A stretch of DNA of 64,000 bases. Origin: Escherichia phage ph0021. The notes beneath the pieces are model-generated. The model saw only the letters and a list, made by a program, of their open reading frames with translations. It made no database searches and was not told where the DNA came from. The translations under genes and the position numbers were made by a program. Position 1 is the first letter of the stretch; each line of letters begins with the position of its first letter. The stretch is taken from the sequence record OP557970.1; one strand, written 5' to 3'. This document shows, one piece after another, positions 10,994-20,606 of this stretch.

Positions 10994-11467
10994 TTATTTG
11001 AACGATTTAACGTACTGAATAGAACCTTTACTATTTACAAAGGCAATTTTACCATTTTTATTATACATGGTAGCAGTACGCTGATAGCCATAAGTTTGCT
11101 TACCAGATTGATAACCAACTAATGCAAAATTATCTTCACCCATTTTATTCTGTTTAGCGCGAATACGTTCATGGCCATGTGCCATAAGAACCTTAGCATC
11201 ACCAGTTGCAATGGATCGACGAGTTTTTTCATCTTCAACTGTATTAACAAAATCGTCAAATGAATCAAATTTAGCATGAGATTTATTATACAGTTTTCCA
11301 TCTACTGCATAATTATATCCTTGTACATCCATCTCAACTTCTGTACCATCATCCAATACAGCAGTGATTTTCTGACCTTTTTTAAATTTCAAAAGATCAG
11401 TAAAAGATTCAGCAATAATTTGAGAATTAATAGCTGCTTCAGTGATAAATTCTTGATATGTTTTCAT
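10994..11467 (-). CDS. Internal protein, IPIII-like, with capsid-targeting leader
   Basis: 157 aa; N-terminal MKTYQEFITE with LxE cleavage motif for the gp21 protease; lies just downstream of e as ipIII does in T4. Confidence 0.6.
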   Translation of the reverse strand: MKTYQEFITEAAINSQIIAESFTDLLKFKKGQKITAVLDDGTEVEMDVQGYNYAVDGKLYNKSHAKFDSFDDFVNTVEDEKTRRSIATGDAKVLMAHGHERIRAKQNKMGEDNFALVGYQSGKQTYGYQRTATMYNKNGKIAFVNSKGSIQYVKSFK

Positions 11468-11521
11468 ATGTTTCCTTTAAATATTTTAATTAGTAATTTG
11501 TCTCTTCGAGCAACTGTGAAT

Positions 11522-11551
11522 ATACTATCACAATTCTAGGAGAAAGTAAAC
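11522..11551 (-). promoter_or_regulatory. Early promoter for the IPIII-like gene (GTTTAC, 18 nt, TAGTAT)
   Basis: -35 at 11546-11551 and -10 at 11522-11527 on minus strand, overlapping the 3-prime end of e. Confidence 0.5.
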
Positions 11552-11555
11552 AACT

Positions 11556-12050
11556 TTATAGATTTTTATATGCGTCCCACGTTCCAGTTCTAAACGTAGC
11601 GATGACTCGTTTTGCGCGATTAGGTGTTTGATTATACCATCTACTTTTAGCTAAGTTAACTGCTGCTTCATCCCAGCGTTTTTGTTGAAGCATACGTAAA
11701 GAATTAGTAAATCCTGCCACACCGGTTTCTCCCATTTGGAAAACCATATTAATCAATGCACAGCGACGAACAGCATCAAGAGAATCATAAACTGGTTTTA
11801 ATTTAGCATTTCTCAAAATTCCACGAACAGCAGCATCAACATCCTGATTAAAGAGTTTTTCAGCCTCATCTTTTGTAATTACACCATTGCAATTACGCCC
11901 AATAGCTTTATCTAATTCAGATTTAGCGACACTTAATGATGGACTTTTAGTAAGCAGATGACCAATGCCAATAGTGTAATAGCCTTCTGTGTCTTTATAG
12001 ATTTTAAGTCTAAGACCTTCATCTATACGTAACATTTCAAATATATTCAT
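11556..12050 (-). CDS. e: Lysozyme (endolysin, N-acetylmuramidase)
   Basis: 164 aa; matches T4 lysozyme as recalled with only a few substitutions; catalytic E11, D20, T26 context present. Confidence 0.97.
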
Positions 12051-12086
12051 AATACCTCCTAAGTGTTTATAGAAGGTATTTATAAA

Positions 12087-12542
12087 TTAAAAGAGGCTGT
12101 TCATTATTCGGTAAAGTGAAGGACCCATCACATATTGCCACTGAGTACGAGGAATAAGAGCAAAAGCATCCATCTCTGGAATCATAACGCCATCTTTATT
12201 TTCAAAATAAGACTCGCAATGGCAATTTCTAAACATCTCATGCTCTACTGGAATCGTATAATAAAATAACTGTAAGTCTTTATTACTAGAATATTTAAAT
12301 ACACCTAGGTCTTCTAGAAGGTCTGGATTATAATTGCTAAAACCAGTCTCTTCTAAGCATTCTCTTTTTGCAGCTTCCAGTGCATTCAAATCAGAACTTT
12401 CTACACGCCCCTTTGGAATATCCCAGCGATGTGCCATCATTCCAGGCTTACGAGAACCAGTAACCCGACCCATAAATAAATCTTTATCTTCTGTCATAAA
12501 GATAATACCAGCTGATAGTGTTTTCATTTTAATTTCCTGCAT
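12087..12542 (-). CDS. nudE: Nudix hydrolase NudE (e.1)
   Basis: 151 aa; Nudix box GRVESSDLNALEAAKRECLEETG; position after e as in T4. Confidence 0.85.
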   Translation of the reverse strand: MQEIKMKTLSAGIIFMTEDKDLFMGRVTGSRKPGMMAHRWDIPKGRVESSDLNALEAAKRECLEETGFSNYNPDLLEDLGVFKYSSNKDLQLFYYTIPVEHEMFRNCHCESYFENKDGVMIPEMDAFALIPRTQWQYVMGPSLYRIMNSLF

Positions 12543-13012
12543 TCAGTGATAAAGTTATTTAAATTTTGAGTATATTTCTTTTCATCAAAAATCTTTTGTT
12601 GTCTGCGTAGCCGCCATGGCATTTCAATGAACGTGCACCATATCCCAGATAATATTGCTGCTGTCAAAATATTAACAAGTATGGTTAAAAGAATCCAATC
12701 TTCTATTCTGTCCATTGGATTTTTTATGAAAAAGTAAAATACGAATGATGTCACAGGAAGACTAATAATATACCACAGAATCATAATCTTATCTGTGAAC
12801 CAATCAGCGTTCGTTAACTTAGCGCGACCATTATAAATACACACGAATTTATCATCTGTTGCAGTAGATGACTTAACTGGTTGATATCCCATTCTAAACT
12901 CCCTAATCAACAAATTTTTCATATCTTCTGAACAGCCATTCCAGTCAACTCTATCAACTGGAATGCCATCATCCCCATCATCTAAATCATACCAGCGAGT
13001 TTTTAAAATCAT
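12524..13012 (-). CDS. Small membrane protein, member of a tandem paralog trio
   Basis: 162 aa; two hydrophobic segments; C-terminal FITECRKLK shared with the next two ORFs. Confidence 0.5.
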   Translation of the reverse strand: MILKTRWYDLDDGDDGIPVDRVDWNGCSEDMKNLLIREFRMGYQPVKSSTATDDKFVCIYNGRAKLTNADWFTDKIMILWYIISLPVTSFVFYFFIKNPMDRIEDWILLTILVNILTAAILSGIWCTFIEMPWRLRRQQKIFDEKKYTQNLNNFITECRKLK

Positions 13013-13371
13013 TTAATTTTCCTGCAATCGCTCACAAACTCTTTCATTGATTCATTTTCAATATAAGACATGTAGTTATTATATTCTTTTAACTGTATTT
13101 TGTAATCCTTTTTTCTTTGCCAATTTATTTTAAAATTATCATAATGAAAATATAACATGGTACCAAAGAATGAAAATAATGAAATAATTTTAGTATAGTG
13201 AAGTTCACTCCAAACTTCTGTTATATTTACTGTGCCGTCGATGTTTAAAATAAGACAGTCAATTAACAATCCAAAAAGACTACCCGCAAGAGCTGCAGCC
13301 AACGCCACAGCAAAAATTAAAAATGACTCAGGAAGCGAATATTTGACTTTATTTAGTTTTGGCTTTTGCAT
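13009..13371 (-). CDS. Small membrane protein, member of a tandem paralog trio
   Basis: 120 aa; hydrophobic segments; C-terminal FVSDCRKIK. Confidence 0.5.
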   Translation of the reverse strand: MQKPKLNKVKYSLPESFLIFAVALAAALAGSLFGLLIDCLILNIDGTVNITEVWSELHYTKIISLFSFFGTMLYFHYDNFKINWQRKKDYKIQLKEYNNYMSYIENESMKEFVSDCRKIK

Positions 13372-19396: not shown

Positions 19397-19795
19397 TCAG
19401 CCTTCATCAACAATAGTGTGAGTATTGGCATTTACGATTTGCCACCAGTCAAAGCGATTAGAACCCATCGGTTTGTTTTCATTTTCTTTGATAATGTCAC
19501 GGAGTTCATCTTCAGAGAATGCTTTAGCGATTAAATCGGTATACCCACCACGGGGATAATAATTATCACCTGCAAACAAAAGGAAATTTACCTTCCCGGA
19601 AGGAACATACGCTTCCTTAGGATACTTGTTTCCTGCGTGGTCAACCACTTCAATATAACGGTAAGGAATATCGGTTCTTTCAACCCATTGCCATGCCGCT
19701 GCAGGGGAATCGAAAGCATCTACACCTAAACGATTATCTTCATCTTTAGACGGATTATTTTCGTAATCCGCATATACATAATATTCAACGTTCAT
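19397..19795 (-). CDS. Hypothetical protein (132 aa)
   Basis: ORF; no motif recognised. Confidence 0.5.
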   Translation of the reverse strand: MNVEYYVYADYENNPSKDEDNRLGVDAFDSPAAAWQWVERTDIPYRYIEVVDHAGNKYPKEAYVPSGKVNFLLFAGDNYYPRGGYTDLIAKAFSEDELRDIIKENENKPMGSNRFDWWQIVNANTHTIVDEG

Positions 19796-19980
19796 TATTC
19801 ACCTTTAGAAATTTTATCCATAACGATAGCAATTAAACCAATTAAAAATGCTACTACAAGTGAAAAAACATTTTCTGCCGTAGTCAATAATCCGCATATA
19901 AATCCAACAAACATTGAAAAACTGAAAGCGGAAGCAGAAATTGCAATAGCAACATTTCGAATTAATTCACAACGTTTCAT
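19795..19980 (-). CDS. Small membrane protein (61 aa)
   Basis: ORF 19795..20121 trimmed to ATG at 19980 after GAGGAG; hydrophobic core AIAISASAFSFSMFVGFICGLL...LVVAFLIGLIAIV. Confidence 0.5.
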   Translation of the reverse strand: MKRCELIRNVAIAISASAFSFSMFVGFICGLLTTAENVFSLVVAFLIGLIAIVMDKISKGE

Positions 19981-20008
19981 TTTATTCTCCTCAGTAGTTG
20001 ATAGGGTA

Positions 20009-20038
20009 ATAGTATCACTACCCCATCTAAAAGTAAAC
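20009..20038 (-). promoter_or_regulatory. Early promoter (GTTTAC, 18 nt, TACTAT) with -10 inside an imperfect inverted repeat
   Basis: -35 at 20033-20038 abuts the ipI-like stop; inverted repeat GATAGGGTA/TACCCCATC flanks the -10. Confidence 0.45.
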
Positions 20039-20272
20039 TTATTTTTTACGAAAAATTGATTTATTTTCTGCTGCCCATTTTTCAATAACTGCAGCAGGAC
20101 CAGTAACAACAATTTTATCACCGTAATCTTCTGCGGCGAGTTGACCGAAATTATCTAATGCATCACGAAGAACTCCATGAGGCATTTCACCCATTTTATC
20201 TTTCTTGCCAGTGTAAATAAACTCAACTTTTACATCAGCAGTTTCAGCAATAAATTCTTGGTAAGTTTTCAT
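20039..20272 (-). CDS. Internal protein I-like (capsid-targeted, candidate injected anti-restriction protein)
   Basis: 77 aa from ATG at 20272; N-terminal MKTYQEFIAE, the canonical T4 internal-protein leader; ipI position upstream of 57B. Confidence 0.6.
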   Translation of the reverse strand: MKTYQEFIAETADVKVEFIYTGKKDKMGEMPHGVLRDALDNFGQLAAEDYGDKIVVTGPAAVIEKWAAENKSIFRKK

Positions 20273-20306
20273 TTTGATTTCCATTTGGTTTTGTTTTGAT
20301 AGGGTA

Positions 20307-20336
20307 ATAGTATCACAACTAAAACCCTATGTAAAC
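20307..20336 (-). promoter_or_regulatory. Early promoter (GTTTAC, 18 nt, TACTAT) with inverted repeat around the -10
   Basis: -35 at 20331-20336; 7-bp inverted repeat ATAGGGT/ACCCTAT flanks the -10. Confidence 0.45.
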
Positions 20337-20348
20337 AACTTTGTGAAA

Positions 20349-20606
20349 TTATTTTAAATCTTCTAATCGTTTCTTCATCTTAGAACCATTTTTAGCAATT
20401 TCTCCTGCATCGGAGCATAATGCTAAAAGTGCTTTAACTTTAGTTTGGTCTCCTTTAAAAGATGAAGGATCGACCGCAGCAGCAAGTTCTTTAATACGAG
20501 AGAAAAGACGCTCAGCTTCAGCTAAAGCCATTCCAAGCTTTACTTCCATACCGTGGGAAGATTCAGTGATAGTAGTTTTTGTAACAAACTCTTTGAAAGT
20601 TTTCAT
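20349..20606 (-). CDS. Internal-protein-like small protein
   Basis: 85 aa; N-terminal MKTFKEFVTKTTITE resembles the internal-protein leader. Confidence 0.5.
   Translation of the reverse strand: MKTFKEFVTKTTITESSHGMEVKLGMALAEAERLFSRIKELAAAVDPSSFKGDQTKVKALLALCSDAGEIAKNGSKMKKRLEDLK

Follow-up and report, generated by a model that had tools for sequence, protein, structure and literature searches.

Internal-protein genes of a T2/T6-type Escherichia phage: three named members, one of them identical to an McrBC inhibitor, and two probable members at a third locus

The 64,000-nucleotide (nt) stretch of Escherichia phage ph0021 analyzed here (sequence record OP557970.1; hereafter the window) encodes five proteins, all on the minus strand, that begin with the capsid-targeting sequence (CTS) of the T4 internal proteins. 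Our interpretation, to which we attach a probability of roughly 0.78, is that the five are internal-protein (ip) genes belonging to a Tequatrovirus of the T2/T6 type, and that their products would be loaded into the head through the CTS, trimmed by the gp21 protease and injected to disable host nucleases. Three of the five are the named proteins Ip4, Ip5 and Ip6, and since Ip6 is identical to Bas37_0260, a characterized inhibitor of McrBC, one of the five already has a demonstrated anti-restriction function. The remaining two, here termed P2 and P3, are probably, by the evidence of their sequences, further members of the family. The open reading frames (ORFs), with their lengths in amino acids (aa), are as follows:

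10994–11467, minus strand: Ip4, 157 aa, N terminus MKTYQEFITE
15571–16137, minus strand: P2, 188 aa, N terminus MKTYAEFLTE
16437–16730, minus strand: P3, 97 aa, N terminus MKSYAQFLNE
20039–20272, minus strand: Ip6, 77 aa, N terminus MKTYQEFIAE
20349–20606, minus strand: Ip5, 85 aa, N terminus MKTFKEFVTK

A preliminary description of this region, made from the sequence alone, had listed five ORFs starting with the internal-protein leader, and its start coordinates and N termini all hold. The set is real and far beyond chance: a six-frame translation of the window contains five instances of the pattern MK[ST][YF]x[EQ]F[ILV]x[EK] against ∼0.0002 expected analytically from composition, and 300 Markov-1 simulated windows contain none. 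The DNA encoding the leaders is itself a dispersed repeat with 65%–78% identity between copies (repeat family D2). A relaxed search of the whole window returned one additional, weak match, a 76-aa UvsW.1-type ORF at 59651 on the plus strand, labeled “DNA helicase” in the record, whose N terminus MLLEFKQFLYE/A is CTS-like and carries L-x-E (here and below, a slash marks the point after this motif). As it surfaced only with the relaxed pattern, it is most likely a coincidental look-alike.

Every leader ends in L/I-x-E, as proposed earlier, although the end point first given for Ip5 was too short: the 10-mer MKTFKEFVTK contains no such tripeptide, and the Ip5 leader, MKTFKEFVTKTTITE, is a 15-aa sequence of the IPI type that ends in ...TTITE, with its first L/I-x-E being the ITE at residues 13–15. 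The predicted gp21 sites are ITE10/A in Ip4, LTE10/A in P2, IAE10/T in Ip6 and ITE15/S in Ip5, with a small residue after each. P3 has a predicted site at LNE10/A and a second at LNE15/A, and this second LNE (residues 13–15) is the junction kept in distant P3 relatives. In T4, both IPII and IPIII begin with MKTYQEFIAE; IPI begins with MKTFKEFTSTTTPVSTITE, so that its leader is of the MKTFKEF...ITE type and not, as a reader of the earlier account might assume, MKTYQEFIAE. Cleavage of T4 IPI after ITE19 leaves 76 residues, which is the published length of IPI* (PMC3012670).

Ip4, Ip5 and Ip6 match named proteins at 98.8%–100% identity and sit in the two classical polymorphic slots, after gene e and between 57B and trna.4. 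Ip4 is 100% identical to RB32 Ip4 and 99.4% identical to RB51 Ip4. It matches phrog_3155, “internal virion protein” (E = 6e-102), and PF24183, DUF7412 (E = 5.7e-96; 319 bits versus a cut-off of 27; residues 1–157 of 158 profile positions), the latter being the one match that Pfam and NCBIfam searches returned for these proteins. Its predicted mature part, following the leader MKTYQEFITE, has 147 aa and an isoelectric point (pI) of 9.1. The gene lies directly after e, in the position of T4 ipIII-ipII-denV, and the sequence upstream of it is nearly identical to that upstream of T4 ipIII.

Ip5 shares 98.8% identity with both RB14 Ip5 and its T6 counterpart and 99% with bas37_0261, and it matches phrog_3499 (E = 1.3e-49); its predicted mature part has 70 aa and a pI of 9.2. 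Its upstream sequence agrees with that of T4 ipI at almost every base, and curators of RB51 and RB32 noted of this gene “similar to Ip5 from T6, T2, RB15, RB70 ... replaces ipI.” Ip6 is named as such in several phages; many phages carry it with 100% identity, and the T6 version shares 98.7%. It matches phrog_8111 (E = 1.2e-52). Its leader is MKTYQEFIAE and its predicted mature part has 67 aa and a pI of 6.5. The Ip6 coding sequence (CDS) in the deposited record starts four codons upstream (MEIKM...), while curated relatives start at the Met of MKTYQEF. The ipI slot is therefore of the T6 type, because the Ip5-Ip6 pair replaces ipI here as in T6. An early-type promoter precedes each of the three genes:

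11522–11557, minus strand: early-type promoter (GTTTAC ... TGTGATAGTATATT) before Ip4, repeat family D3
20307–20342, minus strand: early-type promoter before Ip6, repeat families D1 and D3
20637–20672, minus strand: early-type promoter and 5′ untranslated region (5′UTR) before Ip5

The GTTTAC and extended −10 elements of these promoters match what we take to be the T4 early promoter consensus (Miller et al., 2003). In Ip4 and Ip5, the promoter, 5′UTR and leader of T4 ipIII and ipI, respectively, are thus retained and the mature coding part is swapped. Conserved promoter, leader and terminator sequences of this kind would supply the homology for cassette swapping by recombination.

Two observations on the arrangement of these genes can be added. 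A third, more diverged copy (62%) of the early-promoter repeat that precedes Ip5 and Ip6 (family D1) lies at 19996–20066 on the minus strand, before trna.4, so that the repeat brackets the whole Ip5-Ip6 pair; this recalls the annotation of RB32, where Ip7 and Ip9 are described as surrounded by a “43 bp direct repeat.” Relatives of Ip5 at ∼48% identity (“RB69ORF127c”-like, often annotated as internal head protein) adjoin the lysozyme gene in 228 phage records, and the Ip5 family therefore uses different ip slots across T-even lineages. The best match of Ip4, Ip5 or Ip6 to a sequence in the PDB, a designed propeller (E = 5.8e-4 over 47 residues), is not a credible relative and was dismissed.

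Ip6 is the sole member of the five that is identical to a characterized inhibitor. It agrees with Bas37_0260 at 77 of 77 residues, the two genes occupy the same locus with a partner Ip5 that is 99% identical, and there is no difference between them at the protein level. In T2/T6-type DNA, part of the hydroxymethylcytosine is unglucosylated, and McrBC would therefore be a relevant threat. Bas37_0260 carries an N-terminal packaging signal and sits at the ipI locus, which holds two genes in Bas37; its deletion renders the phage specifically sensitive to McrBC, of which it is an inhibitor (HIDEN-SEQ preprint, 2025, 10.1101/2025.11.20.689424). Bas37 itself (Escherichia phage KarlGJung, MZ501089) is T2/T6-like, because it encodes β-α-glucosyltransferase (10.1101/2025.11.20.689424). 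The authors of that work do not use the older name Ip6.

The five had been put forward as candidate injected anti-defense proteins of unknown target. For Ip6 this is outdated, since McrBC is the target known through Bas37_0260, and the candidacy of Ip4, Ip5, P2 and P3 stands by analogy. The analogy is with T4, in which Ip1, Ip2 and Ip3 are inhibitors of GmrSD Type IV enzymes, a different one in each case and without cross-protection (Silas et al., 2025, PMC12373910), in agreement with the earlier statement that T4 IPI is an injected GmrSD inhibitor. IPIII is needed on ECOR17 and works without its CTS when expressed by the host (Srikant et al.). Nor is the set as such new, as had been implied: three of its five members were already named, and the diversity of CTS-led internal proteins has been described since 1994, when at least 10 of them were reported (Repoila et al., 1994, as cited in PMC12373910), and was restated in PMC3012670.

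The window also encodes the prohead protease and scaffold core genes on which this analogy draws:

49540–49773: gp67 gene, PF17634 (E = 3e-43)
50198–50836, plus strand: gp21 prohead protease gene, PF03420 Peptidase_S77 (E = 1.5e-111), “head maturation protease” in the record
50867–51676, plus strand: gp22 scaffolding core gene, PF25623 T4_CASP (E = 8.6e-90)

For the T4 internal proteins it is established that the CTS recruits cargo to the core, that gp21 trims it and that the mature protein leaves the head together with the DNA. By the same route, the CTS would recruit each of the five small proteins into the prohead scaffolding core, gp21 would then cut after L/I-x-E at the end of the leader, and the mature protein would stay in the head with the DNA and be injected along with it. 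A protein that enters with the DNA is in place ahead of all phage gene expression, and it could then bind and disable a host nuclease directed against modified T-even DNA. On this model, Ip4, Ip5, P2 and P3 would be packaged, processed and injected, and each would target another restriction or defense enzyme.

Beyond their leaders, the five proteins have little in common. BLASTP among the five mature parts and T4 IPI–III found the leaders alone to be shared, with no significant similarity elsewhere, and hhalign likewise found none; outside the leader, Ip4, Ip5, P2 and P3 are not significantly similar to T4 IPI–III or to Ip6. The assertion that the mature domains are unrelated to one another thus survives at the sequence level, with the caveats that phrog_2280 groups P2 with P3 and that the AlphaFold2 models of these two are alike in layout. 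For this pair, the mature parts match in BLASTP at E = 0.77, and hhalign reaches a probability of 14%–41%, aligning the leader or a 24-residue stretch alone, even when remote relatives are added. We therefore make no claim that P2 and P3 are paralogs, despite their common phrog, and profile comparison confirms no homology beyond the leader. The models, with predicted local distance difference test (pLDDT) scores of 60 for P2 and 73 for the P3 family, suggest a common layout comprising a three-helix N-domain, a disordered basic linker rich in Pro, Ala and Lys, and a C-terminal helical hairpin. A Foldseek search of the P3-family model against the PDB and BFVD returned self-family matches alone. 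Structure prediction, one of the checks proposed at the outset, has accordingly pointed to a similar layout for P2 and the P3 family at modest pLDDT, and the fold searches were uninformative.

Composition raises another explanation, which we consider very unlikely, namely that the proteins are mainly structural cargo: basic, Lys-rich counter-ions that neutralize and organize the packaged DNA and aid its packaging or ejection, with a diversity that reflects weak constraint and no arms race. Like T4 IPII and IPIII, the predicted mature parts are Lys-rich (12%–15% in all five) and, in four of the five, basic (pI 9.1–9.6), and solid-state nuclear magnetic resonance shows lysines of internal proteins in contact with DNA phosphates (PMC3012670). 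In a phage without ipII and ipIII, moreover, predicted P2* (178 aa, 19.8 kDa, pI 9.5, net charge +9) comes near IPIII* (183 aa, 20.4 kDa, pI 9.65, net charge +10) in size and charge, and the inactivity of Ip4–10 against the GmrSD variants tested fits the same picture. Yet Ip6, with its pI of 6.5, is not basic, and the N-domain of the P3 family is conserved across genera (99.8% in hhalign), which points to a specific fold and not to charge alone. Above all, four of the four CTS proteins tested for function (Ip1, Ip2, Ip3 and Bas37_0260, which is Ip6) are specific inhibitors of Type IV restriction. A structural role would in any case be compatible with anti-defense, as the two are not mutually exclusive.

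P2 and P3 occupy a slot between rnaC and e.8, outside the two classical ip loci. Its features, in the direction of transcription, are as follows:

16785–16808, minus strand: rnaC terminator hairpin (AGCCCCGACCGAAAGGTTGGGGCT followed by a T-run), the upstream copy of a direct repeat flanking P3 (repeat family D4)
16771–16778, minus strand: canonical T4 late promoter TATAAATA, 48 nt upstream of the P3 start codon
16256–16730, minus strand: P3 gene, frameshifted, 97 aa as written (16437–16730), with the C-terminal 63 codons in another frame to 16256
16446–16453, minus strand: A8 homopolymer that causes the P3 frameshift, A7 in the intact allele
16225–16248, minus strand: second copy of the rnaC-type hairpin, between P3 and P2, 93% identical
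15540–15566, minus strand: terminator hairpin that closes the P2 cassette, directly after which T4-like GGCATCTAGACC... resumes

At this site T4 has a single rnaC hairpin, then directly GGTATCTAAGCC..., and then the e.8 promoter. Here, the first hairpin is followed by the late promoter and P3, the second hairpin, P2 with its terminator, and GGCATCTAGACC.... This flanking order, compared with the T4 junction, identifies P3 and P2 as a pair of promoter-gene-terminator cassettes, inserted at a position unoccupied in T4. An intact P3 gene of 474 nt is present in RB18, RB51, RB32, HY01 and Bas37 (bas37_0244), and curators of RB32 and RB51 noted that it is “flanked by 34 bp imperfect direct repeat,” without remarking on the leader. 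The P2 cassette is absent from RB18, RB32, RB51 and HY01.

P2 (leader MKTYAEFLTE) matches phrog_2280 at E = 1.2e-53 and is 96% identical to bas37_0243; P3, a member of the RB32ORF132c/133c family, matches the same phrog, annotated “unknown function,” at E = 2.8e-37. Matches occur in 164 phage records for P2 and in 511 for P3, and P2 has six matches among 1.84 billion representatives. Both proteins are Lys-rich and basic, as are the T4 internal proteins. Remote relatives of P2 (P0028 and P0029, 29% identity) retain the leaders MITFNEFLNE and MINFNEFLAE. Likewise, the N-terminal ∼86 residues of the P3 family are common to proteins of Yersinia phage fHe-Yen9-01 and Klebsiella phage KP01 (hhalign 99.8%), which have 53%–56% identity and a different C-terminal half, and their leaders are still MLEYSEFLKELFCE/A and MKFKEFLAE/A. 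A leader that is kept while the remainder of the protein diverges or is replaced is as predicted for a functional targeting signal.

Two further observations concern P2 relatives in databases. On a 2.6-kb contig (Logan SRR28624380_555336), P0028 is preceded by a T4 30.3-like gene and directly followed (L018 2092–2526) by a gene with ART-PolyVal/DUF3990 (ADP-ribosyltransferase-like) domains. Two database proteins are chimeric: P0011 joins P2 residues ∼98–123 to the C-terminal part of NudE, and P0010 joins an unrelated N terminus to the P2 C-terminal domain. They suggest either deletion or recombination between P2 and its neighbors in some genomes or assembly artifacts.

It is conceivable, if unlikely, that P2 and P3 do not enter the virion at all and act in the cytoplasm, their leader-like N termini having been acquired from ip genes by recombination or being a chance trait of the family. 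The rnaC-e.8 locus is not among the two classical ip loci, the phrog is of unknown function, the literature yielded no proteomic evidence, and curators of RB32, RB51 and RB18, who named the neighboring Ips, left this ORF “hypothetical.” Against such an origin, the leader with its L/I-x-E persists at 29% identity and alongside different C-terminal domains, a canonical late promoter precedes P3, and the composition of both proteins is like that of known internal proteins. In addition, a CTS is by itself enough to bring foreign proteins into T4 heads (Mullaney and Black, 1996, as cited in later work). We therefore regard membership of the internal-protein family as the probable reading for P2 and P3. 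Their placement outside the Ip4–Ip10 series follows annotation and locus, and P2 or P3 may yet prove to be one of Ip7–10; the RB32 genes for Ip7 and Ip9, however, belong to the ipI locus and are distinct from P2 and P3.

A further correction to the earlier account concerns P3: the ORF starting at 16730 is a frameshifted copy of a 157-aa gene. At the A8 run the window reads CAA GAA AAA AAA TAT CGT TAA, where A7 genes continue for 63 codons, and removal of one A restores a 157-aa protein that is 97% identical to RB18 gp136. The possibility that P3 is a dead gene or an assembly error, leaving four functional CTS genes, deserves some weight, although we doubt it. The premature stop after 97 of 157 aa speaks for it, as does the distribution of alleles: A7 is found in HY01, Bas37, RB18 and eight IMG/VR contigs, and A8 and A6 have no IMG/VR match. 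A sequencing error is, however, unlikely. The genome of PsgM02F (OR584013.1), a Tequatrovirus with 100% identity to the window, was assembled from high-coverage Illumina MiSeq reads (PMC10815195), and two further phages, Shigella phage SF2-1 (China) and Escherichia phage teqhal (Denmark), carry the A8 allele, annotated there too as this 294-nt CDS. Variants shifted in the opposite direction exist as well (protein clusters P0017 and P0020; P0019 is shifted as here).

An old pseudogene can likewise be set aside, since the shifted-out frame is intact and evolving synonymously. Its 63 codons are fully open in all three A8 phages, and pairwise comparisons in the original frame give synonymous to non-synonymous codon ratios of 8:1, 9:3 and 9:2, with third positions dominating. 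Because the A8 phages differ mostly synonymously in this frame, the A8 alleles belong to different haplotypes and are of recent or repeated origin. Judged from these alignments, the A8 tract is a homopolymer hot spot and not the mark of an old pseudogene. The truncated product retains the leader, the complete N-domain and the linker, and full length would be reached only if slippage at A8 restores the frame. The tract may reflect phase variation, slippage rescue or a tolerated truncation.

Several points weigh against our overall interpretation of the five genes. A search of the literature found no virion proteomics or N-terminal mapping for these five proteins, so that packaging and cleavage rest on analogy with T4, and the McrBC result comes from a preprint. 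When ip4–10 were tried against five further active GmrSD systems, no reproducible inhibition was seen (PMC12373910); Ip4 and Ip5 may have targets other than GmrSD enzymes. No inspected annotation calls P2 or P3 an internal protein: P2 is a “hypothetical protein” in each annotated row among 30 listed of its 164 phage records, the same holds for P2 and P3 together in every annotated row among 60 listed, and the family ORF is “hypothetical” also in the expert-curated records of RB18, RB32 and RB51. Upstream of P2 there is only GATAAATA and no canonical late promoter, and P3 is truncated in this genome. The structural models are weak (pLDDT 60 and 73) and the fold searches that used them were uninformative.

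A bolder extension, which we regard as speculative and rather unlikely in its full form, is that P2 and the P3 family constitute a third, hitherto unannotated ip locus of terminator-flanked cassettes in T-even phages, encoding two-domain basic proteins that, in T2/T6-type phages, replace the bulk role of IPII and IPIII and target other defenses, and that P3 is a phase-variable injected cargo, toggled by ±1 slippage in its poly-A tract between full-length and N-domain-only products.

The surrounding genome is that of a typical T-even phage. The window, identical to PsgM02F, is 93%–96% identical to many Escherichia and Shigella Tequatroviruses, and its gene order is T4-like: regB, vs.3–vs.8, [ip slot], e, nudE, e.2–e.8, [gap], rnaC/rnaD, tRNAs, trna.2–4, [ip slot], 57B, 57A, 1, 3, 2. 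The genes ipI, ipII, ipIII and denV are absent from this region, and ipII and ipIII are absent from both this phage and Bas37. The e-vs.8 interval (10888–11556) holds Ip4 alone, compared with ipIII, ipII and denV in T4, denV and Ip4 in RB51, and denV only in Bas37; as far as this slot shows, the phage is without the ultraviolet-repair endonuclease V encoded by denV. PsgM02F is labeled a phage of Pseudomonas coronafaciens pv. garcae, yet its 93%–96% identity is to Tequatroviruses of E. coli and Shigella. Its own paper notes that it clusters with no virus of Pseudomonas and gives an efficiency of plating of 0.11% on E. coli ATCC 25922 (PMC10815195). The host assignment deserves skepticism.

Adjoining the P3 cassette, 16820–17115 on the minus strand aligns to T4 rnaD and rnaC (the small stable “species 2” and “species 1” RNAs) with 83% mean column identity and is near-identical over the rnaC half. 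The annotated hypothetical CDSs 16757–16909 and 16915–17043 overlie this stretch and are probably spurious. In an Rfam scan of 15300–18700, tRNAs were the sole significant matches, and no family matched the rnaC/rnaD stretch. The tRNA cluster (17485–18505, minus strand) comprises 11 tRNAs (Arg, His, Asn, Tyr, Met/Ile-CAU, Thr, Ser, Pro, Gly, Leu, Gln) and lacks segB; that of T4 comprises eight, with the segB homing endonuclease gene inside.

Compared with T4 IPI–III, the set has the same types of leader (MKTYQEFIAE, or MKTFKEF...ITE as in IPI) ending in L/I-x-E, the same small, Lys-rich mature proteins, the same slots after e and between 57B and trna.4, the ipIII and ipI promoters and 5′UTRs before Ip4 and Ip5, and the same gp21, gp22 and gp67 machinery. 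It differs in that the mature sequences have no detectable similarity to those of T4, whose ipI, ipII, ipIII and denV are missing here, and in that the T4 proteins Ip1–3 target GmrSD variants, whereas the single known target here is McrBC, for Ip6 by identity. Within the Ip4–Ip10 series, Ip4 is of the T2/RB70/RB32/RB51 type, Ip5 of the T6/T2/RB14/RB15/RB70 type and Ip6 of the T6 type, and direct repeats flank these genes according to curators. In contrast, P2 and P3 are unnamed in the records inspected and lie at a third locus, rnaC-e.8. Repaired P3 is 97% identical to RB18 gp136 of the RB32ORF132c/133c family and has the same position and the same 34–40 bp terminator repeat, but in this phage P3 is frameshifted at A8 and followed by the P2 cassette.

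The phenomenon, three of the genes and one target were thus already known, and the findings would not surprise a T4 specialist. What is likely to be new is that P2 and the RB32ORF132c family can be recognized as CTS proteins of a third locus, that Ip6 equals Bas37_0260 and that the poly-A frameshift recurs. The addition is modest overall, and it ties the old name Ip6 directly to a newly characterized McrBC inhibitor. P2 and P3 would represent widely distributed CTS genes and are candidates for the kind of screens that solved Ip1–3 and Bas37_0260. Because injected proteins act before phage expression, they would decide whether a T-even phage survives the first host nucleases it meets, with consequences for host range and for the choice of therapy phages.

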